A stretch of DNA of 63,763 nucleotides, counting the filler, from Hausera hauseri (taxonomy: Eukaryota): assembly GCA_046269625.1 (NCBI GenBank). It is 10 parts of 10 records of this genome, joined end to end, with 100 filler letters (N's around TTAATTAATTAA, not from the genome) between each part and the next. Parts side by side here need not be neighbours in the genome. Positions count along the whole stretch, not along the records: positions 38,675 to 51,128 come from JBJURY010033336.1; 9 more parts are not named here. The stretch is one strand, 5' to 3'. Both the position numbers and the translations under genes were made by a program. The notes below the pieces were generated by a model. That model was not told the DNA's origin. It was given only the letters and a program-made list of their open reading frames with translations, and did no database searches. This document shows, piece after piece, positions 1,866 to 59,820 of the stretch; position 1 is the stretch's first letter, and the number at the start of each line of letters is the position of its first letter.

Positions 1866-1884
1866 TTTCGGAATCAATAATGTT

Positions 1885-23624: not shown

Positions 23625-23724
23625 NNNNNNNNNNNNNNNNNNNNNNNNNNNNNNNNNNNNNNNNNNNNTTAATTAATTAANNNNNNNNNNNNNNNNNNNN
23701 NNNNNNNNNNNNNNNNNNNNNNNN

Positions 23725-36819: not shown

Positions 36820-37530
36820 TAATTAAAATGTGCTTCTGCTACACTCTAAATCGGGCTTTTGATACCGGCTTTTTCCTTGTATCCTTGCAACTCAATATTC
36901 ATTTAACACTTTAAACCACCACCACCATCATCACTACCAAGTACATGAGACATTTCGCGACCAATGAAATCAAACAATTTCGTTTTCGGCGCCCGTAAAT
37001 CGACAGATTGCTGTTGCACGGTTGTTTCGTTTAACTTTAAATCCACGTTTAATTGATGCAGCGCATCAGAAAGTTTACCCGAATTTTCACACTAAAGCCG
37101 TTTTACACCATAGCTGTGCTTGGGTGCACATAGAGACATGGGATAATTCAATGAAATCAGTACTGGCGTTTGCAGAAAAGGCATTTCATACTTGCGAAAA
37201 ATTCATTTCGGTAAAAATATCTGTCTTTGGCACGACGGTTTTGATTTTTGTTTATGTATTCCAATCATTGCATTTTGCCTTTTTAGCGTCGTTTTTGCTG
37301 TTGCTTATGATTATTTCTGAGCAAGTTGCTTTTTCGTTTCCAGACAATCGTCACTAGAAGGTTTATCTAATTGTTGGACAGGTTCTGTTTTCGTTTCCAG
37401 CAGTTTGAGATTAGAATTGTCGTTTTTGTAGCCAAACAACTACGACCAATCTGAACTTTCACCATTCGCACAACCATCATCATCACCATCATCATTGAGT
37501 AGAATCGTTTTTCGTCGTCGTCGTCTTCCA
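36820..37530 (-). pseudogene. Polinton accessory gene of unknown function (paralogue B)
   Basis: Frameshifted; C-terminus MNIELQGYKEKAGIKSPI*SV. Confidence 0.35.
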
Positions 37531-37605
37531 TGGCAGTTATGTCTGAATGAGCATGGGAATGGTAGTTATAGTTTGTTGTTGTGGTGCAATGTACATTATT
37601 TTGAT

Positions 37606-38021
37606 TCATAAAACATTTATGTGCTTTTTAATTTGGTTAATAATAAAAATTTTTCTACTGCTAAACACACTGACACAAAGTGGGCGAAACAGTGTCAGTC
37701 TCACTTCAGGAATCTGTTCGGGTTTATACGTATATTCAGTAGTGGCCATTGCTAATTTGTACAGATTGATTGTTTGGTAGTCTAACTGAGCCGTTACCAT
37801 TATTGATTGAATTTGGTCAGTGACAATTCCAAATGGTAGTAGTTTTATAGCTGTGATTGATTTGCGACAATCCATAATACGACACTTTTCCGATTTAAAT
37901 ATAATGCATGTAAAATCCAGTGGACACTTGAGGACATACTGTGTCGGCTTCCATTGATTAAAAGGTAGTGTGTTAATGTCACACTCGGTAACATGTCCGC
38001 GATAGTTGATAATAACTAACA
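37606..38021 (-). pseudogene. TATA-binding-protein (TBP)-like gene
   Basis: Two TBP half-repeats: TCIIFKSEKCRIMDC and IQSIMVTAQL...INLYKL...YKPEQIP...VSVFSSRKIFI, compared with IQNIV...INL..L...YEPEQFP...IFSSGKMVITG. Confidence 0.72.
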
Positions 38022-38119
38022 TTATGGAAACAGTGTTTATACTATAGATATTCATATGTGCGTGTAACACGATTATAAACAAATAATGTGGTGAAGAAAG
38101 GTTGTATTAATATTATTAG

Positions 38120-38674: not shown

Positions 38675-38745
38675 TAATTATTTGCGGTTGTAGATCAGTG
38701 ATGTGTGGAAATTATAGGGGGCGGCGTTTCTTTTGAACATACCTG
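38675..38745. mobile_element. Terminus of a Tc1/mariner-type TIR element, followed by TA at 38746-38747
   Basis: GAAATTATAGGGGGCGGCGTTTCTTTTGAACATACCTG is the exact reverse complement of 51043-51080. Confidence 0.85.
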
Positions 38746-38747
38746 TA

Positions 38748-39591
38748 TATAACAGATATTAAAAATGATAAAAAGAAATCAATAAGATGTGAAATAACCC
38801 ACAAGCAACAGTCGTCATGTTGCAATGTTACGAGAGGAAAGATGTACCAGATAAACTACAAATTAATCCGCAAAGAACAAGGAATTGTTTCCAATATACT
38901 AAAGCAGAAAGGTCCAATGATGTACGTAAAATACAAAAATCTTACTAAGTATAAAGATAAACATTCGAAAATCTCGACGCTATCAGTGCACTCCCAATTA
39001 ATTAATAAAACTAAAGAGATGACCATTTTGATCCTACCGTATGCGTCACATTCCCGACCGAAACGGTCCATCTGGGAAAACGTAACAATTACACCGACAA
39101 CCACTGCATTAATCATAGCGGTCAAACCTGACCTAGATTTCTTTAAAATAAAATTCACCTGCAAAGTCCAGCAAATGATAGTCGCAACAGGCGTAATTAC
39201 GCCCGATGATTTAATTGTACCTTGCGCAGCCCTGACTCCTGATACAAAATACACCATTACACTTAATCTGTACAACGAAAATAACAAGGTAGTGTCCACA
39301 AAAATCTTGACAGCCTATACAAAAGATACCAAGGAATCAGATTTAATAAAACCACCCAAAAGCAAAATCACACCCAAAATAGTAACTACAAAGAAACCAA
39401 CAAGAGCAATATATACGTATTCACGTATGGAATTAATATTAATAGGTACGATAACCCCTGTCGCACTAACTCTACTAATAATAATCGCGATAAAAGTAAT
39501 TAAGATGAAACGACAACGTCAAAAACCCGGTTGGGTACGCATAGACATGCGTCGCCTAACAAAGCCGCTGGACTCGGATAATCCGAGCTAA
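38748..39591 (+). CDS. C-terminal part of the retroelement polyprotein: Cys-containing beta module, furin site RPKR, FN3-like domain, stalk, TM helix and tail
   Basis: Open from 38749 in the frame of ORF 38842; ALTPDTKYTITL; TM LILIGTITPVALTLLIIIAI followed by KMKRQR; joins 51042 in frame. Confidence 0.8.
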
Positions 39592-39720
39592 CAATTACAT
39601 CAATGGATTGCATGTTACGCAATCCAGTATATTAAGATAACTAAATATGATTTAGTTACCTTAAGAACTCATAAAATTCAAAATCGAACGATTGCCTACG
39701 TATTATACTCGACAACCGTT

Positions 39721-41022
39721 ATGATTACGTTAAGTATACCTTGTAACAGTACATTGACTATTATTTTTACAGTTATGAAATCTTCTCAATCTATCCAGTC
39801 CTCCACAGCGATGCAGATCCAAACATTGCAAAGGTCAAAACACTGGTACGACAATGCCAGAAACCATTTGATAAACGCAGGGCCAACAAATCAGTATCAT
39901 GTTGTGATGAATGACAATACCTATTGTCTAAATTATCCACACCTCCAGCAAATCCCCAATAATCTCAAGGGGTACAGTATGGCTAATCGGTCACTGGCCT
40001 TAATACAAATGACCAAAGCCACTTCATTCCTCATAAAAGACCTGATCACCTTACCCAATAAATATCACAGCCTCAATGTCTACGACATACTGGGAAAATT
40101 CCAGATCAAAACAAAGAACTCAACCACGAAAATGGCAGGTGATCTTATCAATCTAGACCCTAACTATGGAATATCTATTGATTCCAAGTTCATGGATAAA
40201 AACACGATAAAAGTACGTTCCCTTACCAACCGTATAATGATAGGAGTTGAGGTAATAAAATCAGAAAAATTCTGGCCCACGGAACCCCAGGGAAGATGCT
40301 TCAACCTGCCAGAACCAGACTACCACCAATATAAAAAGAAATCGTATCGAAGGACAACCGACATCAATGAAAGCGACATGGCTATCGTTGCAGTAAATTT
40401 GGCCTATGACCAGTTTAACCAACTCCAGCCGATAGAATGCAGCATTATGAATCTAACTGGCGAAACCCTCTTCTATTCAATTATCACGCCTAGACAGAGG
40501 ATTAATAACTATGACACTCACGTAACCGGATTGACCGAGTCGCAAACGAACAATCAGATGGATGTGAATGACTTCTACCAGAAGGTCAGCACAGTCTTAA
40601 CGGATAAGTTGGTAATCGGGGCCAACGTATTAGAAACATTAACAAATTATCTCAAATGCCCACTACGAAGAATTGCAGGAGTTTGCGATATTTTATATCA
40701 AGAGGACGTACTGCAAAAATACCATATGGAGGTTATCAGTCATAAGGAGCTAGCCAAACGCTTCTATGAGACACGAACCATGCCACTTCGAAGTACAGTA
40801 TTGGTTCAGTGTTATCAAGCCATTTACCGTTCGTTAAAATGGATGGACGATGTGATCGACACAAGCACGAGCCCCGATAAGGTGTTAAAAACACCCCCGT
40901 CATCTAGAAAAAGGAAATTCCAGATGGAAGAAACCATATTTATGAATGGAGAAGTCTTCACAATCGACGCAGTGCGATATAAATCGCAATCCGGAAACTA
41001 CATCTATCTTCCTCCTTCTTAA
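39721..41022 (+). CDS. Accessory ORF with a C-terminal ISG20/REX4-like DEDDh exonuclease fold, catalytic residues apparently degenerate
   Basis: IVAVNL...CSIMNLTGETLFYSIITPRQRINNYDTHVTGLT...VSTVLTDKLVIGAN...DI; intact 433 codons. Confidence 0.7.
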   Translation: MITLSIPCNSTLTIIFTVMKSSQSIQSSTAMQIQTLQRSKHWYDNARNHLINAGPTNQYHVVMNDNTYCLNYPHLQQIPNNLKGYSMANRSLALIQMTKATSFLIKDLITLPNKYHSLNVYDILGKFQIKTKNSTTKMAGDLINLDPNYGISIDSKFMDKNTIKVRSLTNRIMIGVEVIKSEKFWPTEPQGRCFNLPEPDYHQYKKKSYRRTTDINESDMAIVAVNLAYDQFNQLQPIECSIMNLTGETLFYSIITPRQRINNYDTHVTGLTESQTNNQMDVNDFYQKVSTVLTDKLVIGANVLETLTNYLKCPLRRIAGVCDILYQEDVLQKYHMEVISHKELAKRFYETRTMPLRSTVLVQCYQAIYRSLKWMDDVIDTSTSPDKVLKTPPSSRKRKFQMEETIFMNGEVFTIDAVRYKSQSGNYIYLPPS

Positions 41023-41059
41023 AAGAAAAATTCGGGGCAATTTTCTTCGGCCCCCCATC

Positions 41060-41923
41060 AACTTATTCAGTCGACATTTTACAATTTTGTGTCTCATATT
41101 TTTTAATTCACATTTACATGCTGCGATCGACATATTTATTATTGACCGACATTTCTATTATTGATCTGACCTGCAAAAATATGTGCTATGACTTCGAGAA
41201 TAATTGGGTGACATATGTTATTTTTAGCGATATTTCCCATTTGACATTTGACAGTACTTAACCGACATTTACAGTCTGCAATCAATTTTTAATTCTCCTA
41301 TATCTCCCATTTGACATTTTGTAATCTGTAATGTGATTTTTTAACCAGTGGTGTGCTATATACGATCCTGCATGACATTTTTAGTTTGTTATAGACCATT
41401 TTTTTAATGATTAATGCAATTCTGCATGTTTATAAATCAGGTATAAATACCTGTGGTTTAACGTACGATTTAGAACAACTTTTGACAACAAGTTTTTGAA
41501 TCAAGTTTGGGTATTATTGTTACTTTAAGTATGTGTTTACTTTTCTTAATATCGTAACGGTTATCAATATTTTGCTCTTTTGTTTGTAGATAAATTACTA
41601 AGTAAACCAAGTAATTAAGTAATCGAATCTAAATAACTTGGAGGACCCGACGTGCTGTCAGACCGCCGCCCAAATAATCAAACTAAACTACAGTCAAATA
41701 AAACCGTAGTAACTAACGAGTAACACACGCATACCTTGACCCCGACACACTACCCATAAGTTAAGATAGTAAGGTCCTTGGACTCTCTCTCTACTCACAT
41801 CGCATCGAATAATCTCCCTATTTGTTCACCCGTTGGTTTAATAATTGTCGTTTAAAAACAAAACCAATCGTCTAAAGAAAAGATAAATACGCTCTCCCCA
41901 TTTAAATCAACGGAGACTGAACA
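41060..41923 (+). repeat. LTR of the env-bearing gypsy element (5' boundary approximate)
   Basis: Non-coding, ends ...GAACA two bases before the PBS; TATA-like TATAAATA at about 41442. Confidence 0.65.
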
Positions 41924-41925: not shown

Positions 41926-41943
41926 TGGTGCCGTGACCCGGGA
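41926..41943 (+). promoter_or_regulatory. Primer-binding site, tRNA-His-like
   Basis: TGGTGCCGTGACCCGGGA compared with the canonical tRNA-His PBS TGGTGCCGTGACTCGGAT. Confidence 0.8.
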
Positions 41944-42094
41944 GTAAACCATTCGCATATAAAAAAAATTTAAATAATAAAGTAATAAAATTACCAAGAT
42001 AGCTACCAGATCTGGTGCTAGATATAAAGAAGAAAACGAAATTGCATACGGTCTTGAATATTTAAATAATCTTAGTGAAGAAGAAAACGAAATA

Positions 42095-45000
42095 ATGACA
42101 GGAAATAATGCACCCATAGAGCAGGTGATTCAGTCAAAGGCTGATTTTACCCTGCCAATGAAGAAATTTTCAGGAAAAGAAGACGTGCAAGACTTTATTA
42201 TGGAGTATGAAGTATACTCGAAAAGTTTCGGATGGACTGATCAGCAGCGTGTAGAGAGGCTACCTCTCCACCTAAAAGGGACTGCTCTAGCCATTTATTT
42301 TCAAATGCCTGATGCCGATAAGAACGACTGGAAAGTCGTAAAAGAAAAATTGCCTCAAAAGTTTTTGGTTGACCCTACCGGAAAAGGGAGAATTGAAGAA
42401 TTCATAAGAAGAAGGCAACGTAAAGACGAAACGGTTCAGGAATTTGTATGCGCTTTAGAGAAATTGGCTGCACGAGCATACCCAGATGCAACGACAAGAA
42501 GTAACGCCTTATTGGCCCAATTCCAATATGGATTAGAAGAAAGATTGAGGACAATAATCTCGCAGGCTGACCCATCCACGTTTTTAGAAGCAATAAGAAA
42601 AGCACGTAAAGCTGAGAGAGATGCTGAGTTTTATAGATGGAATAGATTCAGAAATTATAACAATAATAGTTACGATAAACGTAAAAATAACAGCACTCAA
42701 AGGTATGAACGATACGAAAGGAATAGAAGTCCATCCCAAACCTCAGCCACTGAAGCTGAGTCAGATGGAGAAAAGAAAGTAAGATTCAAACTGAGAAATG
42801 AAGGAGAGAAAACATCCTATAAAAAGAAATACCCCAAAAAGGATGGAAGATCATGGCCAAGTATAGATTCAGAAGGAAGATTAAAGTGTTTCAATTGCAA
42901 CAAATACGGCCATATTGCCAAAGCGTGTAGGTCACGAAAAAGAGAACCTATGAAGAGCAACATGAGATATAATAACAATAATAAACCCAAGAAGGACTAT
43001 ACATCAGTTACATCAGACGAATCATCCGATGGAGAATACGAAACAGAAGAAAGTGAATCGGAACGAAAGAAAAAAGAAAGTACTAATTATGTCAATGATG
43101 TATTGTCTCATCGAATGAAGACGCAATTAGCGATGGAATTAAAAGATTATAAGACTCAACAAAAACGGTTGAAAGAAAATAGTATCTGCACAATAGAAGA
43201 TAAGCCTGAAGGAACAAAAACTCGACGAAGTAGGAAGAAGAGTAATAAAAAGATAATCGAAGTGGAATCAAGAGAGACTTCAGTGGAGAAGAGTGATGTA
43301 GAAAAGAAGACAAAGAGAGGACGGAAGAAGAGTTTAATTGGAGAATCAACCTCGGAAGAAGGAGAAGAAGAAAGTAAACCGGTAAAAATATTTGATGAAA
43401 CAGTGATGGAGCAGGTAATCCAAAGAAAAGAAGTTGACTTAGATGCTGACGATGAAATTATCGAAGCTATAGTTGCTATTAACCCCGAAAACGTCGAAAT
43501 AGATGGAGCAATAAAAGCCTTACTGAAATTAATAAACAGTAATGTATCAGCAAATAAATTAAACGAAATATTATTTCAATTATTGTTACTTGCGCATGAC
43601 ACCAGCCCAGTTCGAGACATAGCACGAACGATACTAGCTAAAGCAGCAGAAGCAGAGATAGGAAAAAGTGAATTTATCAGAATAACTTTAAAGGAAGGAA
43701 ATCAAGACCTGAGAGTAATCCGGATGAAGGAAAATGACGACATAGAGACCCTACGCGAGAAAATCGTAGAATTAGAACCGGATTATAGAGAAAAACTGTA
43801 CGGATTAAGTTTCTATGGAAGAACGCTATATAGTTATGACAACTTGTTACGGATAGGCATTAGAAACGAAAATTATAATCCCATTACCATTACTCTAGTG
43901 GAGATTCACCCGGACGCCAGAGCTGAGGTAGTAGCAGATAATATAATTAGAGAACTGGAGCCACCAGAAGAACATTTGCTAGGTGACACTCAAGATGTTA
44001 CAGTTCAGACAGAGGCAAGAAGAAGAGGAAGACCGAAAGGTACCAAGATAAGTGACATCAAGAATAAAAGAGATAGAAATGAAGAGATAGTACGCCGGTT
44101 GTTGTTATCAGGAATAGATATGACGCCAGAGTCAGTAGACATCGACCCGCTAATAAGAACGTTACTAGCAAGATTGCACACCTCATTTGCATCATTCGAT
44201 ATGCAAGTGACAATTCCAGATGAATTATTTCAGTCATTACGAAATTCATTATTGAGAATTAGTAGGCAATTTTACGAAAATATTACGGAAGAAAGAATTA
44301 ATGAATTACACGAACAAGATATTGTAGAAAAGATGTTGGCCTCAGGAGTTACTCGAGAAAAGGTATTAACCGCGGTGTCATACATAATCTATAAAATAAT
44401 TGCCACTAATCACCAAACAGAAAATCTTGAAGAGATTGATCGTAACATCAAGACCATAGTTAAGGTTTTGCGAGATACGCTACAAAACTGGGTTCAATGC
44501 AGAGGAGGTTGGATACCGAGTTTAATGGCTAACACAGCCATAACGGAAATGCCAGACAGACCTTCTGGCTCACCAGCGACCACTCCACTTAACCAAAATG
44601 CTATTAGACAAGGTATAACGAACGTGTCGTTTGTGGAAATCCTTCAACTTCTCTTAATCATGTCCATTTGCGCACCTAATGCTATGGGTATAGTAGCATA
44701 CGACTGCTCAAAGCCGAAAGAAGGACAAAAGTATTCATTTGTTGACCTTGAAAAATGTCCAGAAGCGGACCCAGAACAATTAGTCACTACTACTGGTCAT
44801 CGATATTGGGTTTATCAGGAATCCGAATTTATAAAAGTCAAAATACGAGAATGTTATTTGAAACGATCTTTTTTCCTTTTCAATTGCGCATATTACTCTG
44901 GTAATTCGGCAATAATAGAACCAACTACACCATTTGAGCCTATAATAATATCTCGTGCCGAATGCCAAGACGCTTTTAAAATTGGAACAATAACGGTGCA

Positions 45001-48000
45001 AAATGCACATATACCCGCAGTAAGAAATAGAATAAAATATACTCGAATTTTCCGAGCAGGAAAAATCGACAAAACTAGAGAAGGAACTTGCAAAGGAGTA
45101 GACTATGACGTAGGCGGAACAATCGCACCTAGAACGGTAGCCATTGAAGATTACCAAGTACAATTGAAAGAATATGAAGCGTTGTTTGACTCGCAAACTA
45201 AATTAATGACTACGATGGCTGAGTGTGAATACGATAACGGTGAATGTGACACAGGAGAATCGAAGATGGCTTGGGAAGTATCTACAAAAAAATGCCATTT
45301 AACCTTGCTAAAAAACGGAATATTTAACAAAACGGTAGGGAAATCAACCGATAAAGAGACAACTACGTTTAAGGAAGGAGTAAAGGAAGCAAAAATGACT
45401 GAAGTCGCTACTATAGTGTTCTCAGCAAACCCAGAGGAAATGATGAGATTCAAAATCACAGGCACGCTGAACAAATGTGACGAAGAAATATTTAAAACTA
45501 ATTACAAAGGGATATACTTGTCCTTGAAACAAGTACACGGAGCAAAAGCGAAACTAGACAAAACGGATATAAAGTTAACCCAATATTTCGATAATAAAAT
45601 AGATTTCCTAATCAACTATGTAAGAATGGAAATTAGAAGTCTATACAGGGAAATAATGATGAATGAATGTAAATTAAATTACGAAATTATGCGAAATAAG
45701 ATGGCTCTGGTAATGACTAACCCAGACATGGTAGCCCCGGTAATGCCATTCGGTGATGGAATAATTGGTAGAATAATGGGTGAAATACTAGTAACTATCG
45801 AATGTAAGAAAGTAGATGTCAAATTAAGACCCACGAATATCTGTACTTCAGAATTACCAGTAGAATACCAGAATGAACCGCGTTATGTAATGCCAGTAAC
45901 AAGAATCCTATTGGAAGCCAACGTGAAGCCGACAATTCTTTATAATTGCACTTTTAACATGTCACCAATGTTCAAAATCAATGATAAAAGTTGGATACGA
46001 ATGCCTAATAGAGAAACGATGCCAGCTCCAGAAATGCTTAGCCTAGTAAATCTGCAAAGGAATCATAAATTCGAACCTTTAACGAGTATCCCACAAGGAG
46101 GGATATATACAGAACAAAACTTAGAGGACTATCGGAGAATGATAATGTTCCCACAACAAAGACAACGAGTAATAACAGAATTGACAAAAAGAGTAATGTG
46201 GGACGGAGAAGGATCACCACAATGGGAAAATCTGATGGGAAAAGACTATTTAAAGAAAGTAACGAGAAATATCATGGAGAAGATGTGGGGAAGATTTCTA
46301 TATTTCGGACAAGCAGCTTCAGGATTTTTAGCAATATATTTTATTATCAGTGCCCTACGAACCATATTTACTGCACTGGGAAAAGCATACGGAATTCACG
46401 CTGCAGTAGGATGTTCGTGGAAAATTTTAATAGCTGTAATACCGGCGGTAGCCAGTTGTTTCCTGGCTAACCATGATGCTAAATGGAAAAAGAAGTTACT
46501 TAAAGAAAAGAATAAAAATGTTGAAGATACCTCACCTTACAGCATAATAAATGACAAAAATGATGATGACGATGACGGTAAGGCGGATAACAAGGAATCC
46601 ATTAGTAATAAATACCTTACCAGAATGAAAAGATTTTCGTTAAGACCAAGAAAAAAGAAGTACAAGAAGAAATTACTAACGGACCTGCCACAACTAAATT
46701 CAGCGGACGAATATAATGGACAAATCTGTACATCAACTTCAGCCCCGTATTATGTACAATCTTTGAGATATCAAGACAATAACGGCTTAGAAAGAAGAGA
46801 AACGTATCCCATGTATCAAGTGTTGCAAATGAAAAGAAGTTACGACGAAAATTTACCATCTCAGCCTACGTGCAAAACGAATGATAAGAATGCACCAAAA
46901 ACACCTACTAGACCCGAAGTAATGATAGATGTGAACGGATACCCAATGCTTGCGTTAATAGATACAGGATCGACCACAACGATAATGGGAAAAAGTCAGT
47001 TACCACCAAAACTCTTGAGAAAACTAAGGAAACCAACAGAGACACTAGTTAACGTAGGAGCATTTGGCACTGAGGAAGAAATAAAGACTGTCCTAGATGC
47101 CAAAATTAAAATATGTAATCAGATAATTGACCATACCATCAGAGTAGCGGAGAACTTAACGAACGAAATCCTTATTGGATGTGACATTTTAAGTCAATTA
47201 GAAGAAGTCTATATTGATCTAAAAACAAGTCAACTTAGGACGTTTGGCAAGAGAGAATGTGAAGGGTCAGTCACCTTAACAAGAGAAATGGTAATACCAA
47301 GTAGAAGCGAGATAATAACGACCGGAAGAATCCAAGGAAGGAGGGAATTTGAAAATGTGCATTTCGAACCATCATATCAGACAATGGAAAGATATGATAT
47401 TCTAATCGCTCCGCATATCGATAAAATACGAGATGGGAAGATTCACCTAAGAATCTGCAATACTGGGAACAGGAAAATACGATTAAGAAGAAATACTAAA
47501 ATGGGATATATAACGGCAATTGAGGATATATTGACCGGATCCGTCAAAGAAAGTGTTAACTCTATAATTTCAGATGTGGATAAGATTGAGAAAATGATAA
47601 ATAAGAAATTGAGTGATGGAAGACAGAAAGTGGAAACGAAGAAAACCCCAAATCATATTAACTGGGAAGAGAAGTTACAAGAATGTAAAATGTTAAACGA
47701 AGAAGAAAGAACAGCACTAAAACAGCTCCTAGAAAGGAATAATAAGCGGTTTGCTCAAAGTGACTACGACTTGGGATCTATGAACGTAATACGACACTCT
47801 ATTAAATTAAAAGATGGCCAAGATAAACCAATAAAGAAGCGACCTTATAGATTAGCATATGATAAGAAAGAGCAAGCCCGCCAGATTATAAAAGAAATGA
47901 GAGAAAATAAAATAATTCGACCTAGTTGTTCTCCTTGGACAGCCCCGGTAGTAATGGTTAAAAAGAAAGACGGAGCTATGAGATTCTGCATAGACTATCG

Positions 48001-51000
48001 AGCCCTTAACGAAATAACAGAAACGGACACCTATCCGCTGCCCAGAATCGACGAGATCCTAGATAAGTTGCACGGATCAGCTATATTTACAACCATAGAC
48101 CTGCAGAAAGGATACTGGCAGGTAGAGATCAAAGAGGAAGATAAACAAAAAACTGCCTTCTCGATAGGCGAAGGATTATGGGAATTTAATAGAATGCCCT
48201 TTGGATTAAAGAACGGCCCACCAACGTTCCAAAGAGGAACAGAGTTGTTATTATTAGACGCCCCTCATGCAATGGTCTATATCGATGATATAATAATCGC
48301 ATCACCTAGTTTTAGCCAACACTTAAAGGATTTACAAGATCTGTTTGATAGATGTGAAATAATGGGTCTTAAAATTAATCCGAAGAAATGCTCATTCGCA
48401 CAAGAAGAAGTCGACTTTCTCGGACATCGAGTAGATCGATATGGCGTAAAACCATTAGAAAAGTTACTCGGAAAAATTAAAGATTTTCCAAAACCTACCA
48501 CCGTAAAGGAACTACGTCGATTCCTGGGATTAGCCAATTATTATCGCAGATTTATAAAAGATTTCAGTAAAATAGCCAAACCATTATACGAATTACTGAG
48601 AGAGGATCTAGAAAAAGTAATATGGACAGCCGACTGCCAGAATTCATTCGAAACTTTGAAAGAAAAACTGCTAAGCGCTCCAATCTTAATATATCCCGAT
48701 ATGAAGAAATCATTTATATTGGCAACAGATGCAAGTGACTACGGAGTCGGCGCAGTATTATCACAAAAGGGCGAAGATGGAAAAGAACACCCAGTAGCTT
48801 ACGCATCAAGGAAGCTGAATAAGCATCAGAAGAAATATGTGGTTATCGAAAGAGAACTATTAGCCGTAATATTTGCACTAGAAGTATTCTCACCTTATAT
48901 CAGTGAAAATAAACCTGTATTGATATACACAGACCATCGACCATTACAATGGTTAAAACAGCATGAAAACCCAAATAGTAGATTATTACGTTGGGCTCTT
49001 AAACTTCAACCATATACCCTGAACTTCCAGTATAAACCTGGAACGCGTAATGCCAACGCGGATTATCTATCAAGATTACCAGAAAACCAGGAAACAAAGA
49101 AAGCCGTAGTAGCAGCTATATGGAGCATGGACGGATCCATAGAGAAGATAAGAGAGAACCAAAGCGAAGATGCCGAAATAAAGGCCATTAGAGGTTATTT
49201 GATGAATAAAATCGTGCCATCAGATAAAGAGTTAGCACGACACCTAGCTAGATTTAGTGAAGCTTACGAAGAAAAAGAAGGATTCTTGTATTATATTCAC
49301 CAGAACGGGCCCGCATTAGTAATTCCAAAGAAGAATCGAGCGGTATTATTAACCCAATACCATAATGGATTATCGGGAGGCCACCAATCGGTAAGAAAAA
49401 CAATAAATAAACTGAAAAGAAAATATTTTTGGTCTACTATGGTAAAGGACGTACAAGAATGGTGCGATAGTTGTAAACTATGCTTCACCCGTAAAAATAC
49501 GGGCTCAAAATTTAAAGCACCCCTCAAAGTATGGGACAATCCACCAGCACCATTTGAATTCACCGCAATGGATATAACAGGACCTTTACCATTAACACGG
49601 AATGGAAATAAATATATCCTCGTGTTCATAGATTATTTTACTCGATGGGTAGTGGCGATACCTATGCATGATATGAAGGCAGACACAATTGCTGAGAAGT
49701 TCGTAGAAAACATTGTTTTCAACTACGGAGCCCCCAGAATATTACTAACGGATCAAGCCTCCAATCTAACAGGGAATGTCATGCAAGCGATATATGAGAT
49801 CATGCAGATACTGAAATTGAGATCAACGCCCGGACACCCAGAAAATAATGGCATGATCGAAAGATATATCGGAGATCTGAAAAGCAAATTACAGACAGTC
49901 GTAAGCGTCAGACAAGATGACTGGGACGAATATATCAACGCATGTGTTTTCGTAAATCGAACATCAGTACATGAAGCTACCAAAGAAACACCATTTTACT
50001 TAATGTATCTGAGGGATGCCAGATTACCAATCGATTTAGACTTCAACGTAAAACCAACTTCGCATTTGATGGAAGTAGAAGAATATAAACAGCTAATGCA
50101 GGAACGCTTACAATTGGCGTACAAAATAATAAAAGGAAATCAATCGGATTATAAAGACAAATATAAGAAGTACTATGACAAGAAAACAAAGAAGCCGAAA
50201 ATTAAAGTGGGTGATAAAATAATGCTACACGTACCATTGAGCAAGAAAGGAAAGACGTCCAAATTAGATAGACCCTATAAAGGTCCATATGAGGTAGAAA
50301 AAGTGGACTTACCTAACATCTGCATAAAGAAAAATAATGCCACGTTCAAAGTGCACGTGAATAGATGTAAACCTGCAGCTAAAGAAAGCCATCTCAGAGA
50401 AGATGAACAGGAAATAGTGAGAACAATTAGCGAGAAACCAATCGGTAAACAAACCACATATACAAGGGTTAGCATAAAAAACTATTTCATATTTTTAATT
50501 TTTATGCTATTGCCTGGTGCTATAACACAAACAATAGAACAGGAAGCGATGAAATCCATGATATGTCATCTAATATCAATATCAGATGATTCATTACTGA
50601 AAAGTATCAAACATCATATAATATATTCCAAAAAGGGTCAAAAATGTATAAAATTTTACGCTGAAAAACCCTTACCTACCAATTATACCGTAGGAATTCA
50701 AGTAATTCATGAGGAGGATCATAAAGAAAAACTAACTCGACAGAACTACGATTGTGAGCTACATTATGAAACAAATGAAACAGAATGTTTAATAGAAGAA
50801 GCCGGTTTATATAACCTATATTATACGCTCATTAAAAAGCGAGGCAATCTCTATCGGACGCAAGATGCTAAAAAGATGGGTCTAATAAAAATTCTTAACA
50901 AACATGAAATGAATGTCACGCAATTAGATGTAAAAATTATCGAACAAATAACAGCAAAACTGATTGCTTTTAAAAACGGAAGAAGTTGCGTTGAAATAAC

Positions 51001-51076
51001 GACAAGGATAAAATTGGAATATAATCGAAGAATAAACATATACAGGTATGTTCAAAAGAAACGCCGCCCCCTATAA
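42095..51076 (+). CDS. Single-ORF Ty3/gypsy polyprotein: Gag, Ubl, AT-hook, Bcl-2-like, class III-like glycoprotein, PR, RT, RNase H, IN, second ectodomain
   Basis: CFNCNKYGHIAKAC at 42887, RRGRPK at about 44020, NWVQCRGGW at about 44490, signal peptide plus IVAYDC at 44690, TM about 46290-46470, DTGS at 46961, YIDD at 48278, TDASD/TDHRPL, HHCC, DDE core, GPY. The last 11 codons come from the inserted TIR. Confidence 0.95.
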   Translation: MTGNNAPIEQVIQSKADFTLPMKKFSGKEDVQDFIMEYEVYSKSFGWTDQQRVERLPLHLKGTALAIYFQMPDADKNDWKVVKEKLPQKFLVDPTGKGRIEEFIRRRQRKDETVQEFVCALEKLAARAYPDATTRSNALLAQFQYGLEERLRTIISQADPSTFLEAIRKARKAERDAEFYRWNRFRNYNNNSYDKRKNNSTQRYERYERNRSPSQTSATEAESDGEKKVRFKLRNEGEKTSYKKKYPKKDGRSWPSIDSEGRLKCFNCNKYGHIAKACRSRKREPMKSNMRYNNNNKPKKDYTSVTSDESSDGEYETEESESERKKKESTNYVNDVLSHRMKTQLAMELKDYKTQQKRLKENSICTIEDKPEGTKTRRSRKKSNKKIIEVESRETSVEKSDVEKKTKRGRKKSLIGESTSEEGEEESKPVKIFDETVMEQVIQRKEVDLDADDEIIEAIVAINPENVEIDGAIKALLKLINSNVSANKLNEILFQLLLLAHDTSPVRDIARTILAKAAEAEIGKSEFIRITLKEGNQDLRVIRMKENDDIETLREKIVELEPDYREKLYGLSFYGRTLYSYDNLLRIGIRNENYNPITITLVEIHPDARAEVVADNIIRELEPPEEHLLGDTQDVTVQTEARRRGRPKGTKISDIKNKRDRNEEIVRRLLLSGIDMTPESVDIDPLIRTLLARLHTSFASFDMQVTIPDELFQSLRNSLLRISRQFYENITEERINELHEQDIVEKMLASGVTREKVLTAVSYIIYKIIATNHQTENLEEIDRNIKTIVKVLRDTLQNWVQCRGGWIPSLMANTAITEMPDRPSGSPATTPLNQNAIRQGITNVSFVEILQLLLIMSICAPNAMGIVAYDCSKPKEGQKYSFVDLEKCPEADPEQLVTTTGHRYWVYQESEFIKVKIRECYLKRSFFLFNCAYYSGNSAIIEPTTPFEPIIISRAECQDAFKIGTITVQNAHIPAVRNRIKYTRIFRAGKIDKTREGTCKGVDYDVGGTIAPRTVAIEDYQVQLKEYEALFDSQTKLMTTMAECEYDNGECDTGESKMAWEVSTKKCHLTLLKNGIFNKTVGKSTDKETTTFKEGVKEAKMTEVATIVFSANPEEMMRFKITGTLNKCDEEIFKTNYKGIYLSLKQVHGAKAKLDKTDIKLTQYFDNKIDFLINYVRMEIRSLYREIMMNECKLNYEIMRNKMALVMTNPDMVAPVMPFGDGIIGRIMGEILVTIECKKVDVKLRPTNICTSELPVEYQNEPRYVMPVTRILLEANVKPTILYNCTFNMSPMFKINDKSWIRMPNRETMPAPEMLSLVNLQRNHKFEPLTSIPQGGIYTEQNLEDYRRMIMFPQQRQRVITELTKRVMWDGEGSPQWENLMGKDYLKKVTRNIMEKMWGRFLYFGQAASGFLAIYFIISALRTIFTALGKAYGIHAAVGCSWKILIAVIPAVASCFLANHDAKWKKKLLKEKNKNVEDTSPYSIINDKNDDDDDGKADNKESISNKYLTRMKRFSLRPRKKKYKKKLLTDLPQLNSADEYNGQICTSTSAPYYVQSLRYQDNNGLERRETYPMYQVLQMKRSYDENLPSQPTCKTNDKNAPKTPTRPEVMIDVNGYPMLALIDTGSTTTIMGKSQLPPKLLRKLRKPTETLVNVGAFGTEEEIKTVLDAKIKICNQIIDHTIRVAENLTNEILIGCDILSQLEEVYIDLKTSQLRTFGKRECEGSVTLTREMVIPSRSEIITTGRIQGRREFENVHFEPSYQTMERYDILIAPHIDKIRDGKIHLRICNTGNRKIRLRRNTKMGYITAIEDILTGSVKESVNSIISDVDKIEKMINKKLSDGRQKVETKKTPNHINWEEKLQECKMLNEEERTALKQLLERNNKRFAQSDYDLGSMNVIRHSIKLKDGQDKPIKKRPYRLAYDKKEQARQIIKEMRENKIIRPSCSPWTAPVVMVKKKDGAMRFCIDYRALNEITETDTYPLPRIDEILDKLHGSAIFTTIDLQKGYWQVEIKEEDKQKTAFSIGEGLWEFNRMPFGLKNGPPTFQRGTELLLLDAPHAMVYIDDIIIASPSFSQHLKDLQDLFDRCEIMGLKINPKKCSFAQEEVDFLGHRVDRYGVKPLEKLLGKIKDFPKPTTVKELRRFLGLANYYRRFIKDFSKIAKPLYELLREDLEKVIWTADCQNSFETLKEKLLSAPILIYPDMKKSFILATDASDYGVGAVLSQKGEDGKEHPVAYASRKLNKHQKKYVVIERELLAVIFALEVFSPYISENKPVLIYTDHRPLQWLKQHENPNSRLLRWALKLQPYTLNFQYKPGTRNANADYLSRLPENQETKKAVVAAIWSMDGSIEKIRENQSEDAEIKAIRGYLMNKIVPSDKELARHLARFSEAYEEKEGFLYYIHQNGPALVIPKKNRAVLLTQYHNGLSGGHQSVRKTINKLKRKYFWSTMVKDVQEWCDSCKLCFTRKNTGSKFKAPLKVWDNPPAPFEFTAMDITGPLPLTRNGNKYILVFIDYFTRWVVAIPMHDMKADTIAEKFVENIVFNYGAPRILLTDQASNLTGNVMQAIYEIMQILKLRSTPGHPENNGMIERYIGDLKSKLQTVVSVRQDDWDEYINACVFVNRTSVHEATKETPFYLMYLRDARLPIDLDFNVKPTSHLMEVEEYKQLMQERLQLAYKIIKGNQSDYKDKYKKYYDKKTKKPKIKVGDKIMLHVPLSKKGKTSKLDRPYKGPYEVEKVDLPNICIKKNNATFKVHVNRCKPAAKESHLREDEQEIVRTISEKPIGKQTTYTRVSIKNYFIFLIFMLLPGAITQTIEQEAMKSMICHLISISDDSLLKSIKHHIIYSKKGQKCIKFYAEKPLPTNYTVGIQVIHEEDHKEKLTRQNYDCELHYETNETECLIEEAGLYNLYYTLIKKRGNLYRTQDAKKMGLIKILNKHEMNVTQLDVKIIEQITAKLIAFKNGRSCVEITTRIKLEYNRRINIYRYVQKKRRPL

Positions 51077-51128
51077 TTTCGTCGCAAATGGAAACGCCAC
51101 CCATAAAATTTCATCGCAAATGTTAACG
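51043..51128. mobile_element. Other terminus of the Tc1/mariner-type element, preceded by TA at 51041-51042
   Basis: CAGGTATGTTCAAAAGAAACGCCGCCCCCTATAATTTC. Confidence 0.85.
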
Positions 51129-51228: not shown

Positions 51229-53205
51229 TCACCTTTCTGTTGCACTCTATTCTGAAATGCCATAAGTTTCTGTTGTGGCGTTACTGTAGGCAATAACTTA
51301 CGATTCAATGCTCCAACCAGGGAGGACCAAGATTTTTTTTCATCATTAATAAGCTCACTATAAGCATCGACAGCTACATTCTTAAGATATAGTGATAAGC
51401 GTTTTATTGTTACTTCAGGAGTAAGACTAGTACCCTCTGCGTGCAGCTTATAAATCCTTAAAAAGTCATTGAGCCCGTCCGGGTCACCGTCGTATGCCGG
51501 AAGATTCAAAGAGTCAAATGAAAAATGTCGAGCTTTTGTCCTACGCCTGGATTCTCCGTTGCCATATTTATCCTATTCTTACGAGGTTTATCCTTAAGTT
51601 GAGGAAGTTTATGCTTACCGTTTGATTCTAAATTGATTTTAGTGTCAGAATTTGTTCTGTATATTACTCTGCGTGTCTCACGTACAGGAGACTTATTTCT
51701 ACCGTTTATTTGGTTCTCAATGTTCGTCTTAATTTAGCCCTTTATTTTAGTCTCTGATAACTTATATCCCACAATTTATTTTTCTTTCTATTAATCGGTG
51801 TATTGGCGCTGATCGCCGATATGTCTTTATTTAGCTGTGAATAGTACTAGCTAGGCACAGACTGTCCTGCTAGGGTCGCCAAATGTTATATATACGGGTG
51901 GCCCTTAACTCACACCCCTTATATATAACGTATTTTACTCTTGAAATTAAATTTTCTTATGCAAAATCGGTCTAACGTTATCGCTAAACGAATGTGCCTA
52001 GTATGTCGATTTTACGTGAATGCAAAATGTGGTAAATGCGACACCCCTGCGTAGTTTTAATAATTTCCAGCTACTTATATAATTTACTGTGAATTTTACA
52101 CTTAGTGTACATCAAATCAGCCTAAAGGGCCGATGAGAAACTATAGTCGGATTTTATACAATATAAATAAAATATACCAATATATTGATTCCTACAAGGG
52201 AATCACACGTTTTAGAATAATGTCAACGTTTTCAATACTGCTGATATTGAGTTACTGAGTTGTCTTCTTTAAACACTGGTCGAATCTTCAATCAAGTACC
52301 TTTTCGCTAATCAACGCTATAGTCGATGAAAACTGATCAAATAACTGTTTAGAGAAATTGTCAGGACTAATCGACGCTAAAGTTGACGAAATCTGTTCGA
52401 AATACTGTCATAAACGCTGGCTTATATACTAGGGCTAATCAGTGCCAGTTGCTTTTTATTTGCATTTCTCTCATTAATTTGCTATTTTCAACGTTTATTT
52501 AACAATTCATTAGCAGATAATTGCCATATGCCATTTCTAATTATTACGTTACTAATACATACTATTGATAATTCAAATTTAACGTTAACAACAATATGTT
52601 CAATTCACTAATATGTACAATTTAACAGCTGTATTATTTAGTCAATTCACAACAAAGCCAACCAGACTACTGTCAAGGTACAAACTTAATATATTTATTT
52701 TCTTTTTGACCGTATTTTACTTGTTAGGAAGGTGAATCTGTAAAATGTTTGTCCGAACTAATTGGTTTTTAAAATCCGAAATAAATCGTTATTTAAATAG
52801 GGAATGTTTTCAGAGGACAGAGTTGCAATCTTGTCAAGATAATCCTTAATTATTAAAATATGTATGTTAAACATTTTAAGGTTTTATTCTTCCCGATGTT
52901 TACTTTGAACCCGATAAAATAAAACCAACACTACGCAATATGGTCTCTAATTAATTCAGGCAAAGATTTTGACACGTATTCTCAAGTTATTTATCAATCA
53001 CGGCCAATCAATTATGGTAGCTCACAGAGCGACTCACAATTGTTTAGAACATACAAATTATTTACCAATCAGCCAAATTTGGGACCTTCAAATGATTTCG
53101 ATTACCACAAAAAGCAAAAATAAAGAACTAGATTAGTATGACAAATAAAATATGCCCTAAATAAGTTGTTGGCTAAATGCTCGCTCGTCCGAGACACTTG
53201 TAACA
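51229..53205 (-). mobile_element. 5' end of another gypsy element: LTR 51884-53205, PBS 51864-51881, gag from about 51565
   Basis: On the minus strand the LTR runs TGTTACA...TATAACA, followed by TGGCGACCCTAGCAGGAC. Gag reads LPAYDGDP...FLRIY...LSLYLKNVA...RVQQKG. Confidence 0.8.
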
Positions 53206-54699: not shown

Positions 54700-55070
54700 C
54701 AAAGGTGGCTGTAATGTAAGCCACTATAAGCAGTAATGTCCGCACAGTATAGTCATTGGATATTGATAATGAACTCGATTATATTCAACACCATATGACA
54801 ATGATGATTATAGTTCAATTTGAGAAACTAACGATGACGGATAGTAAAATCCGAGCGAGTCGAATACTCTGATGACGTTGGTCGGATTGTGAACGTACAC
54901 AGCAATCCAATGTTCTCCCGGCAACGGTGAAGTGTGTATTGACAATAAGGTCACCGCAGCCACTTTGTCCTTAATCACACGGCACACGGTCCAGTGGAAA
55001 CACGCAACGAAATTTTACGCCGAAGAGCAGTTTTCCGTAGTTATTGAGCACGGTGGAGCTAAATGTGAAT
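54700..55070 (-). pseudogene. Polinton cysteine protease, second copy
   Basis: NTHTSPLPGEHWIAV...VFDSLG...YQYPMTILCGHYC contains the His/Asp/Cys triad region; homologous to 1-210. Confidence 0.85.
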
Positions 55071-55149
55071 TAAGTATAATAGTAATAGTAGTAATAAATT
55101 ATTTCATGGTACGACGACGAAGAAGAAAAGGTGAGACAGCGGATTTCAT

Positions 55150-55337
55150 ATATACAGTGACGGTTCCGTTTTTCGTTATTTCAACCTCGGCATCAAATAC
55201 ACCTTAAATGTACATCACGATAGATTGCTCCAACGCTTTGGCAAAGTGAATCTCCAGTCGCAGGTTTCCCTGCTGAGGTAGTTGAGTCTGTTCAACGTCA
55301 TAATCCGGAGCCAGGACAAAAGTGAAGAATGGATAGG
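55150..55337 (-). pseudogene. Polinton major capsid C-terminus, second copy
   Basis: Nucleotide homologue of 284-455. Confidence 0.8.
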
Positions 55338-55437
55338 NNNNNNNNNNNNNNNNNNNNNNNNNNNNNNNNNNNNNNNNNNNNTTAATTAATTAANNNNNNN
55401 NNNNNNNNNNNNNNNNNNNNNNNNNNNNNNNNNNNNN

Positions 55438-56260
55438 GCTGTAAAAACCATCCTTGGGTGGTAATGAGGACTCATCCAGTGTTTCCCATGATGTTATATA
55501 ATCATAGGGAAACACTGCTTTCCTTTTAACCAGGTCAAAGGTATCCGGAAAGAATTGCTTCGTTTCCTTGAGTTCTTTGACAGGCAGGTTCTTCACTAAA
55601 CTATCCCGTAAAGATGACATGAATCTGAAACTATTGATGAAACAAAATCGGATTTTACCAGCATGCTTAGTGAAAGTGATATATTTTTCCTCACTGTTGG
55701 GGATCACCTCAATGTTTACTTCAATGTTGCCTAATTCTCGGAATATGAAGTGGCTATCATAGCCACTAAGATTATGAAACACTAGATTGCAGTTGTTACA
55801 TGCTGCGCCACGATATGCACCTTAACTTTCCAATTTTCCTTGATGAAGGACTTTTCGCACAAGTAGCATGATGCTGCCTTGTGCCATTATTGTTCTTGCA
55901 TCCAAGACATGCTCATGTCGTCCTTATGTTGTTGTAGAATCCTTTGAAGATTATGAGCCATGTCTTCAAATCTCTTCATGAAATGTGCTGCTGCATCTGG
56001 ACCCCTGAATAGATATGGTGCATTGTCCAATTCTTTGGCATACATACAATACGATTAGAGTTCGTGATATTGGTATGCCGTTGTACTGCTATGTTGAGGA
56101 CTGGGACTGTATTTGTGAACTGGCTTGAGAATGGCCTCAAAGTCGCAACAGATGACAATTGAGACCTTGATCCTCCTCTCAAATTCCTTAAATTCGATAT
56201 AGTCCTCTTTGGGAAATTCTGGCCTTACACAATAATTGCTGTTTCAGTACATCTTGTGCT
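55438..56260 (-). pseudogene. Polinton PolB exonuclease region with an endonuclease VII-like Zn insertion
   Basis: CDFEAIL, CYLC...YRGAACNNCNL, FHNLSGYDSHF, EEKYITF, SFRFM, RKAVFPYDY; overlaps 9753-9990 in sequence. Confidence 0.88.
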
Positions 56261-59200
56261 TGTAGGTTTTATTTGGTTAAAACAAATCCAAGAAATGAAG
56301 AAATAAATCCACAAGAAACAAGTTGTATTTAAACTTTAAAATTCTAAATTGATAAATCTATACAGAAAAATCAATTTTTAACCATGAAGCACATATATAT
56401 GTATACAAATGTTCATATATAAGAAAATAATCAAAATGTTAGAATAAAAGCATTACAATCTTAAAATCATTGATACAGGAGAAATCACAGATCCCGTGAT
56501 TGCATTGTAAATTACACATTCAGAAAGCAGCAATGAATTAAAAAAAACGATTTAAAATTTAAAGTCAGACAATGCTAGCAATACCTTTGAAGGTCTGTTC
56601 CTTGGTAAATATAGTTTTATTTCAATATTCTCATTGGCATCATCATCTGCCAAAACGATGATAGAAGAACAGCGACAAAACCCACGACTTTATTCTTATT
56701 TGAGAGTTCCCTGCTTTTCTGAATCACTGGATAAATAACATCTTTTCCTTTAAGTGAAATTTCAAAATCGACGACTGCTATATACATTCGAGCAGAATTT
56801 GGCGAGGATACAAGTTGTTTATCTAAATTTTTCTGTCGACTTGATTGCTTTTGATTGCTTTTACAAATCGTTCGAGCTAAATGCCACTGTCACACCATTT
56901 TCAGAAATTGCAGCTTTTGCGTCGCATAATCACATTGTGGGAAAATTCTCTCACCGATTCGACAGCCTCAAACAGTGCAGCCGCATCCTAGCCACTACAT
57001 CACCTTCTCCCCCCGCAGTGGCAAGACAAAAACTTTGAAGAGAAGAAAATGAATGGAAATTACAGTAGAAACAAGAAGAGCTTATACCTATTCGGTTTTG
57101 GTACGTGTTAGACGTTGGACTCCATCTGTGAACTTCTCCCTACTGTAAGTACTAAACGTCACATGACGTGATCTGTTAGTTATAACTGGTACTTGTGGAG
57201 TCGTTGGAGAGAGAGATACTGTGGATTTTGTGGTGCTGGAGGATGTTCCATGAGGCGGTGAAAGTGGAGAAGAAACTGAAAACGGAAAAAGATCACGCGA
57301 AGCAGACGAGATTGCAGAGGGCAGAGAATTGTGCGATGAAGGTGAAATGAATAGTGGATGTGCAGGCGATGACGGATAAGCAAATGGTGAAGGAGCACTG
57401 GAAGATGAAGGAAGTGAAGAAAACTGATTGTGACGCTATAGTGATGGCTGCGAAGGATTAAAATTATCAAGGACATTAGATGGTTGCTCGAGGGTAGAGA
57501 AGTTAGAGTTGGGATTTGAAACAATGCTGTTATTCTGGTCATCATCGATGAAGAAGGCTGGCTTAAGATTAGAAATTTGTACATTATGGGGTTGGTCCTT
57601 GCGTAAAATAGTGGCAGTGTGCGAAGAAAGATTAAGTAATTTGTAAGGTCCAACGTATTGAGGCCAAAAACCAGAATGTGACGGATCCTTCAACCATACA
57701 AACTTGGCTGAGTATATATCCTCTGGGATATAAGATTTGTCTTTGTTTATAAGACGGCAGAACGCATTCGAGTATACATCAGCAAAGTGGGACTGTGCTG
57801 CACGAATAACTTCATCTGATGGACTTTCGTCCAGATTGGAGAGCTCAAATAGTGCACGAACTGGTGTCCCAAAGAGAGCCTCAGCTGGAGCACAGCCTGT
57901 AGTGGTGGATGGCATGAGATGGCATGAGGTCCAGTTATGATTGTTGTTAGCCAGGATTTTTAAGGAAATCTTCATGGTATGATGAAATCTCTCGAGAAGA
58001 CCATTTGCTTGGGGATTGTACGGCGTCGTATGGAGATGGGCTATCTCCAAGTGCTTTACAAGAGATTTGAAAGATTAGCTTCAAATTGCGGACCCTGGTC
58101 CGTTATGATGTGACGTGGTGAACCAAAACGGTTGACCCATATTTTGATTAATGCATCTGCTACTGAGTCGGTGTTAGTTAATCGAGGCGGAACGGCTTCA
58201 GGCCAGCGGGAAGCACGATCCATCATGGATAAGATGTATTGATAAGCGTTGTTGGATGGCAAAGGACCGACAAGATCCAAATGCACAGTGTCAAAATGGG
58301 ACGTACAATGGAAGTGGTAAAGTGGTGGTTTTAGGTGTTTGTGGACCTTGTATTGCTGGCATGCTACACATCCCTTGACCCAGATCTGTACATCTGTACG
58401 CATAGTTGGCCATACAAAGTGGCGTAGCAGTAGTTGAAATGTGGCTTTTGGACCCGGATGATGAAGAGGGTGAAAGTGATTGAAATCTGTCTTTTGTAGC
58501 GATGTAGCAAGAATGATTTTCTTGTTGGTCGAGTTGGAAGTGTCGTAAGCGATGCCATCGATGATTTCAACATATTTAAAAGCTTGGGGAATGTCAGATC
58601 ATGGCTGGTTGCTTCTCAGGACCTCAGAGGAGAAAAGTGGCTGAACTGTAATTGGGTTAACCCACCGCGAAAGCAAATCCGCTACTAAATTTTCGGTGCC
58701 TGAAATATATTTCATGAAGAAACTAAACATCGACAGGTATGATATCTGTCGTTTTTGTCTGGGTGATGGCTGTTTCAAAGTCATTATATGAAGTAAAGGC
58801 TTGTGGTCGGTTTGGATGGTAAATTGACGTGAAAGAAGCAAGTGCTTGAAATGCTTTACCGCTAAAACCACAGCCAAAAGTTCACGATCGAATGTGGAGT
58901 ATCGGCTTTCCGGTTGCGTGAGCTTTCGGGAATATAACTCTAATGGTTCATTGACGCCATTGTATATTTGCTGTAATATCGCACCAGTTGCTGTGGTAGA
59001 GGCATCGGTAGTTAGTATTAATTCGGCGTTTGGTTTTGGAAAAGCCAAGATTTCCACAGTTTTCAGACCTTCACGAAGGCGATCAAATTGATTTACTAGA
59101 TCGGGAGTCCAATGGATTAATTGCCTTTTCTTCCCGGATGAGAGGTGTGCGAACGGTGCCGTTAGTTCGGAGCAGTGTGGCACGTATTTGTCTACGAAAT

Positions 59201-59720: not shown

Positions 59721-59820
59721 NNNNNNNNNNNNNNNNNNNNNNNNNNNNNNNNNNNNNNNNNNNNTTAATTAATTAANNNNNNNNNNNNNNNNNNNNNNNN
59801 NNNNNNNNNNNNNNNNNNNN

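Follow-up and report, generated by a model that had tools for sequence, protein, structure and literature searches.

A compact Burro-type Ty3/gypsy element of Hausera hauseri carries a predicted class III fusion glycoprotein in frame between Gag and protease

The Burro/GYPSM1 elements of planarians are giant gypsy elements in which one open reading frame (ORF) encodes Gag with CCHC knuckles, a Ubi/SUMO-like domain, a BCL2-like domain, an envelope (env), and the protease, reverse transcriptase, RNase H and integrase (PR-RT-RH-IN), as set out in the Burro section of Arkhipova & Yushenova 2019 (PMC6431247). That section matches the Burro env to mononegavirus fusion proteins and presents it as the first env to lie in frame between gag and pol. 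GAG-ENV-POL elements with a gB-type ENV are described from Nematoda, Bryozoa and Platyhelminthes in the main text of Chary & Hayashi 2026 (PMC13524379). Here we analyze a 63,763-nt stretch of the Hausera hauseri genome (GenBank assembly GCA_046269625.1; the window), which consists of contigs joined by N spacers. The contig at 38675-51128 holds a long terminal repeat (LTR) retroelement of about 12.3 kb with an LTR of about 0.86 kb. It adds a new, compact member to the Burro-type GAG-ENV-POL elements, a group whose layout has already been published.

The coding part of the element is one open frame with its first Met at nt 42095. Gag, the envelope glycoprotein (G) and Pol follow each other without an intervening stop or frameshift, in the order Gag, a weak ubiquitin-like domain, a Bcl-2-fold domain, an internal signal peptide, the class III glycoprotein and PR-RT-RH-IN. 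Pfam places along the frame a Ty3 capsid, a CCHC knuckle, a below-cut-off Bcl-2 match (aa 747-844), Monjiviricetes_fusion, protease, RT, RNase H and integrase. The catalytic motifs of all four enzymes are intact, and the PR-RT-RH-IN order, the GPY module and the Ty3-type capsid place the element in Ty3/gypsy (Metaviridae).

41981..51076, + strand: single open frame, 3031 codons from stop to stop
42155..42928, + strand: Gag, with Ty3-type capsid at aa 59-211 (PF19259, E 2.4e-5, below the curated cut-off) and CCHC knuckle at aa 302-317 (PF00098, E 3.8e-4)
43685..43900, + strand: ubiquitin-like domain, weak (Pfam ubiquitin E 0.064; relative P0011 E 0.031 at the same place)
44147..44536, + strand: Bcl-2-fold domain, immediately ahead of the signal peptide (PF00452, E 1.8e-5, below cut-off; model)
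44630..44689, + strand: internal signal peptide 1, predicted cleavage after A-M-G (hydropathy; conserved small residues at -3/-1 in relatives)
44690..46303, + strand: predicted class III (chuvirus-G/gB-like) fusion glycoprotein ectodomain and membrane-proximal helix (Pfam, alignment, AlphaFold model, PDB/BFVD/VIA matches)
46313..46369, + strand: predicted transmembrane anchor of G, aa 1445-1463 (best segment of the family profile; K/R at aa 1457 in 55% and at aa 1460 in 77% of rows)
46412..46468, + strand: second hydrophobic segment, which probably lies on the membrane surface as an amphipathic helix (many polar or charged positions in the family profile)
46907..47203, + strand: aspartic protease with DTGS (PF00077, E 6e-8)
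47957..49015, + strand: reverse transcriptase and RNase H (Pfam; catalytic motifs present)
49322..50296, + strand: integrase with zinc-binding region, D-D-E core and GPY module (Pfam; motifs)

A preliminary description, made from the window sequence, had quoted env motifs from one reading frame upstream of DTGS. All of them lie in the frame 41981-51076: ILQLLLIMS (aa 887, nt 44639), IVAYDC (aa 904, nt 44690), SFVDLEKC (nt 44735), LYREIMMNEC (nt 45641), GEILVTIEC (nt 45779) and CTSELPV (nt 45842), followed by DTGS (nt 46961) and YIDD (nt 48278). The placement of env between gag and protease is likewise borne out, since PF24664 falls between the Ty3 capsid/CCHC region and the protease, and the same order recurs in relatives.

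By family and predicted fold, G is a class III fusion glycoprotein. Pfam Monjiviricetes_fusion (PF24664) covers aa 886-1520 with an E-value of 1.2e-88. A profile-free search of 1.84 billion representatives returned 1263 proteins at E<=0.001, and the best 150 of these 1263 were taken. In an alignment of 117 relative proteins with the G of the window (118 sequences), all 14 cysteines of the ectodomain are at least 90% conserved. The ectodomain spans aa 904-1441, or 538 residues, close to the Cys-rich ectodomain of about 530 residues that had been proposed. The AlphaFold model of G has a mean pLDDT of 91.4, and its PDB matches, among those listed, are all herpesvirus gB (best E 5e-15, TM-score about 0.4). 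The VIA comparison with herpesvirus gB gave a best Z of 11.8 at a root-mean-square deviation (rmsd) of 8.5 over 415 aligned residues, and the best BFVD match is a chu-related virus glycoprotein (E 1.9e-42, TM-score 0.68). The predicted model thus has the gB-like multi-domain fold with a long central helix, and the sequence adds a signal peptide, conserved disulfide cysteines and a C-terminal anchor. The chuvirus-G/gB-like identity had been suggested from motifs in the sequence, with missing class III similarity named as grounds for dropping it; both the Pfam match and the fold provide that similarity.

The order of the parts is shared by relatives. Pfam scans covered 16 of the 19 closest relatives, leaving aside the fragments P0009, P0014 and P0017. 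G stands upstream of an aspartic protease within one predicted protein in 13 of the 16, while in P0003, P0011 and P0013 the protein ends in or just past G. A Gag marker, G and protease occur together in six close relatives, and P0008 and P0019 are continuous from the CCHC knuckle through integrase. No protease was found by the Pfam scan in six more distant long matches. The G of the window is 28-39% identical to that of most close relatives, which come from separate records, and this distance at a conserved order indicates that the arrangement is old and did not arise by a mis-join. One could suppose instead that the frame of an ordinary gag-pol element happens to contain a chuvirus endogenous viral element (EVE) or a mis-join: short contigs make up the window, the element contig is permuted, and among the listed pieces of the public run X1 none spans the whole stretch. 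However, a random insertion would not leave a 9-kb frame unbroken, and the same order is found in 13 diverged relatives and in the published Burro section (PMC6431247), which makes such an artefact extremely improbable. An accidental in-frame EVE insertion was rejected given the same order across relatives. The position of G between gag and protease is confirmed as genuine and not an assembly error.

The relatives also show features of their own. Downstream of G, many have between two and four aspartic protease motifs (P0001, P0002, P0004-P0007, P0016), with four in P0007 and one more after integrase in P0002 and P0005; the window element has one. Tandem proteases might ease the dimerisation of a membrane-tethered Pol. 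P0008 (HBK71150.1) is a gypsy G-Pol polyprotein labelled as coming from a Flavobacteriaceae metagenome-assembled genome; this bacterial bin probably took in animal DNA. In P0142, a distant relative, immunoglobulin domains are fused upstream of the fusogen, and P0079 has DUF5641 upstream of G.

Compared with the published systems, the window element shares with Burro the single ORF, the env in frame between gag and pol, and the BCL2-like domain before env (PMC6431247, Burro section). The implied novelty of the layout does not hold, as that section published it in 2019 for planarian Burro, including the ubiquitin-like and BCL2-like domains before env. The two differ in size: about 12 kb, 3031 codons and an LTR of about 0.86 kb in the window element, against 25-30 kb and an ORF1 of about 4,900-5,100 aa in Burro as given there. 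The window element has one CCHC knuckle, whereas the same source gives two to three for Burro. BIR, MATH, ankyrin and dUTPase domains, which belong to the Burro cargo, had no Pfam match in the window element at E<=0.1 or 0.5. Its BCL2-like domain directly before env, seen by Pfam and fold match, agrees with the Burro type; its size falls short of Burro sensu stricto, and it is filed as Burro-type only.

The Platyhelminthes C1a elements Smed_errantivirus_1-6 have the same GAG-ENV-POL order and gB-type ENV as the window element (PMC13524379, main text). By eye, the Schmidtea C1a ENV sequences shown there and the G of the window have YQE, CxTG, MRF and TNYxG motifs in common in domains I-II. The motifs occur in 17 of 154 proteins, almost all of the polyprotein clade, and in 2 of the 132 ranked P0021-P0152. 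This distribution suggests a flatworm as the likely host. The bryozoan ENVs in that paper look more distant from the window G than the Schmidtea ENVs do. Its main text lacks the words Bcl, ubiquitin, fibronectin, exonuclease, polyprotein and splic. The nematode NERV shows, in a second-hand account, a flipped ENV-POL order in a metavirus. NERV, the subject of Sacco et al. 2022, reportedly has a continuous gag-env-pro-pol ORF, and is said to be restricted to nematodes and to carry other accessory ORFs. The G proteins of Jingchuvirales/Monjiviricetes and of mosquito BEL/Pao (Anakin-type) elements belong to the same Pfam family as the window G and share its fold, the N-terminal A-Y/F-D-C motif and the C-terminal membrane region. 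They are stand-alone genes of about 650 aa with 21-28% identity, whereas the G of the window is embedded in a gypsy polyprotein.

The cargo between Gag and G includes the Bcl-2 region. Its model (aa 690-903) has a pLDDT of 55, and the top 28 of 48,161 chains compared with it are all members of the Bcl-2 family (best Z 9.3, rmsd 3.2, 114 aligned). Other comparisons matched Bcl-2 only weakly, with E 0.18 in a sequence search and E 0.008 in Foldseek. In 4 of 14 relatives the signal is preceded by a BH2-like GGW motif. Since the Bcl-2 proteins of cells are tail-anchored, cleavage could leave the signal peptide as the anchor of the Bcl-2 domain.

The signal peptide 1 site has a small residue at -3 in all 14 relatives and at -1 in 13. 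The A/G-Y/F-D-C motif that follows it lies at median position 24 in 87 of 105 G proteins of stand-alone length, which puts it directly after an ordinary N-terminal signal peptide in those proteins. The proposed internal signal peptide, and with it a need for host signal peptidase, therefore appears likely. The C-terminus of the G family comprises an amphipathic helix, one transmembrane segment and then a second segment with polar periodicity. On a crude scale, a segment score below 1 was obtained for the best segment in 52 of 115 family rows and for the second-best in 1 of 115. The strongest basic cluster of the window copy, 6 K/R in 15 aa, comes after the second segment, and either single-pass choice would consequently place Pol in the cytosol. 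A two-pass anchor with Pol in the lumen was judged less likely on the amphipathic family profile of the second segment and the K/R cluster after it.

The remaining parts of the element have to be read across a permutation of the contig. Its two ends are the arms of a terminal-inverted-repeat element inserted at a TA, which we take from this site to be Tc1/mariner-like. In a 3326-nt contig of X1, one public run that contains the stretch, 50063-51040 is directly joined to 38746-41092, and two letters fit both sides. X1 may be the window's own source, in which case it is not independent; of the X1 joints, 51040-38746 was used, and the other short ones, with sides of 21-35 letters, were left out. 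This joint indicates that the contig is permuted at a TA-site insertion missing in at least one copy, and that 38746-41022 is the 3' part of the element.

51038..51128, unstranded: arm of the terminal-inverted-repeat element inserted at TA, at the contig end (perfect 43-nt inverted pair with 38708-38750)
38675..38750, unstranded: other arm of the TA-site insertion, at the contig start (inverted pair; X1 contig)
41064..41923, + strand: probable LTR, single copy in the contig (ends an inverted pair at 8 of 9 bases; 3' end CA)
41926..41943, + strand: primer-binding-site-like sequence that begins with TGG, 2 nt past the end of the LTR (sequence)

An X1 contig covers 41063-41923 and then leaves the stretch; it alone defines the LTR edges, the 5' edge being deduced. 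The two LTRs were likely collapsed by the assembler. The primer-binding-site-like sequence presumably corresponds to tRNA-His. The permuted contig showed neither a second LTR nor flanks nor a canonical polypurine tract. The LTR as delimited starts with TA, not TG, and no purine tract directly precedes its start in 41020-41063; a purine-rich run lies about 30-45 nt upstream. DNA relatives of the element were found in none of viral_contigs, metagenome_contigs and genome_contigs, the last searched with P0008 as query.

Read in this order, the frame continues past integrase into a predicted type I membrane protein and, beyond its stop, into a further ORF.

50480..51040, + strand: a second segment resembling a signal peptide, then the first part of a predicted luminal domain with 3 N-glycosylation sequons (the insertion interrupts it at 51040)
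38746..39591, + strand: second piece of the post-integrase membrane protein, with luminal part, Thr/Lys-rich stalk, strong transmembrane segment and basic tail (hydropathy)
39589..39665, + strand: predicted readthrough signal, TAA-CAA-TTA and two hairpins (CAR-YYA context; RNA folding)
39592..41022, + strand: ORF in frame beyond the stop, with an ISG20/REX4-like exonuclease region that appears degenerate (profile ISG20L2 E 0.003, ISG20 E 0.15)

We assign the first two pieces to the same gene because the X1 contig passes from 51040 into 38746, and because P0005 and P0008 have an unbroken tail of similar shape. The second signal-like segment lies at aa 2834-2850, and the final transmembrane segment at 39424-39492 (KD 2.65) is followed by 6 K/R. 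Together with 4 K/R before the second signal peptide, this charge parity gives an in-out-in-out-in path, on which Pol must be cytosolic. Five relatives contain integrase, of which P0019 ends inside it; three of the four that extend further (P0005, P0008, P0018) have a hydrophobic, signal-like segment, and the final transmembrane segment is also present in P0005 and P0008. The post-integrase protein found no match in Pfam scans or among longer homologs. A fibronectin-III label, suggested by an L-x-P-x-T-x-Y motif that the window shares with P0005 and P0008, was unsupported by pairwise shuffling tests.

The gene of the post-integrase protein likely undergoes stop-codon readthrough, as judged from codon context and RNA structure. 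Its stop, TAA, is followed by CAATTA, a CAR-YYA context, with an in-frame ORF downstream and 3' RNA structure; the CAR-YYA motif and a viral precedent for UAA-CAA-UUA appear in the portion of PMC3159437 consulted. Such a context occurs at 9 of 3243 + strand stop triplets, and the signal was noticed post hoc. The 112 nt from the stop fold with a z of -3.95, matched by 0 of 200 shuffles. Among 109 tiled windows only one fold is stronger, and it overlaps the stop region, so that this is the strongest hairpin signal of the element contig. The downstream ORF has 476 codons in frame, with its first Met 44 codons past the stop, and one homolog, P0154, at 62% identity. Its catalytic acidic residues, compared by eye with the DEDDh motif, are presumably lost. 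Bdelloid rotifer LTR elements have a DEDDy exonuclease ORF3 3' of pol (Rodriguez et al. 2017, PMC5408684, in the part consulted), and the window element likewise has an exonuclease-family ORF; it differs from that ORF3 in being ISG20/REX4-like, seemingly degenerate, and placed after an in-frame stop in a readthrough context. A post-integrase protein and readthrough were not found in the Burro section of PMC6431247, in the words of PMC13524379 or in literature searches; Grohme 2018, Sacco 2022, Lee 2026, Repbase and figures may describe them.

Synthesis of the product could proceed as follows. The Gag, ubiquitin-like and Bcl-2 parts would be made in the cytosol. The internal signal peptide would then direct the ribosome to the endoplasmic reticulum, where signal peptidase would cleave before IVAYDC and the signal would stay as the C-terminal membrane anchor of the Bcl-2-bearing precursor. 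The G ectodomain would fold and trimerise in the lumen. One transmembrane pass and a surface-lying helix would return PR-RT-RH-IN to the cytosol, where the element's protease would free the enzymes. The second signal peptide would begin a second type I membrane protein, and occasional readthrough would add the exonuclease-like domain on the cytosolic side. Particles with G may bud at internal or plasma membranes. We regard it as quite probable that this is a Ty3/gypsy LTR retroelement of Burro/GAG-ENV-POL layout whose product is processed as a membrane-threaded polyprotein. The preliminary description had called it more like a flavivirus or alphavirus polyprotein than a retrotransposon. The layout is that of a retrotransposon, as the Burro section of PMC6431247 has it, and the flavivirus comparison stands as a fair analogy for processing.

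Several points weigh against this reading. In the window copy the two hydrophobic segments of G are equally hydrophobic (KD 1.83 for the first, 1.92 for the second). On the crude scale used for the family, the second segment scored better than the first in P0023 (1 of 115 rows) and, among the rows listed, in P0026. P0002 has neither a post-integrase hydrophobic segment nor a final transmembrane segment, and the post-integrase tails of the relatives are not significantly alike (z <=1.8 outside one signal-region match). The ubiquitin-like match is weak (Pfam E 0.064). Assignment to the Burro type draws on layout, domains and short ENV motifs, the last picked after both sets had been seen.

The same element could produce its proteins in other proportions. 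Single-ORF LTR elements are known to set their Gag excess post-translationally or by splicing. The proposed 1:1:1 output would then not apply: the second segment would be threaded in some chains, whose Pol would end up in the lumen, or env would be removed from the RNA by splicing. That particles normally require far more Gag than Pol, that Copia-type single-ORF elements use splicing, and that the second segment is hydrophobic in the window copy all favor such a scheme; the amphipathic family profile and the K/R cluster after the segment argue against mixed topology, and we consider the scheme somewhat unlikely. The envelope might also be kept for a non-infectious role, such as budding into internal membranes, spread between cells within the host, or service to the host. 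Bcl-2-fold cargo would suit this, Burro1 is reported to protect stem cells with anti-apoptotic cargo (PMC13465017, second-hand), and literature searches found no particle data for this family. However, the element retains all 14 cysteines and a full predicted gB-like fold together with intact Pol motifs, in keeping with a working fusogen. We find such a role rather unlikely; it would be compatible with the membrane-threaded polyprotein, which concerns processing.

A more far-reaching version of the membrane-threaded polyprotein, which we put forward as speculative and doubtful, is a virion with two glycoproteins from one twice-threaded chain. The gB-like fusogen would lie mid-chain, the type I protein after integrase would be its attachment partner or fusion trigger, signal peptide 1 would anchor the Bcl-2 protein, and programmed readthrough would add a catalytically dead ISG20-like domain. 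The trigger role is suggested by analogy with herpesvirus gB, which needs accessory glycoproteins. If true, this would be a retroelement whose processing is flavivirus-style and whose host-directed cargo has three layers. The second membrane protein and the readthrough ORF, if they are real, would extend the known cargo of Burro-type elements. At about half the size of Burro and with an intact Gag-to-integrase frame, the element is a simpler subject for studying how Pol is processed after a membrane protein and balanced against Gag.

Elsewhere, the window contains no tRNA genes and several remnants of other elements and genes. At 13298-16013 (+), interrupted frames resemble a degraded NRPS-like gene; they contain a phosphopantetheine attachment site (PF00550, E 3e-6) as well as an adenylation-like segment, and 13298-14386 matches Med14 (E 4e-6). 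Frames and repeats at 684-4707 (-), 9753-11313 (-), 36246-38106 (-) and 54889-56260 resemble Polinton/Maverick pieces, accompanied by a dUTPase (E 6.5e-23) and a TBP-like frame (E 5e-6). By their motifs we take the Polinton/Maverick-like frames, which lack a Pfam match, to be capsid-, integrase- and polymerase-like. Several decayed ordinary gypsy gag-pol copies, some mutually inverted, lie at 16000-26000, 51260-51572 (-) and 58700-59950, and a second gag-like start is found on the contig next to that of the element. A frame with an RRM at 22061-22540 (+; PF00076, E 7e-8), presumably ELAV-like by motif, is probably a host exon. A long microsatellite array with a 4-bp unit occupies 28100-32000.

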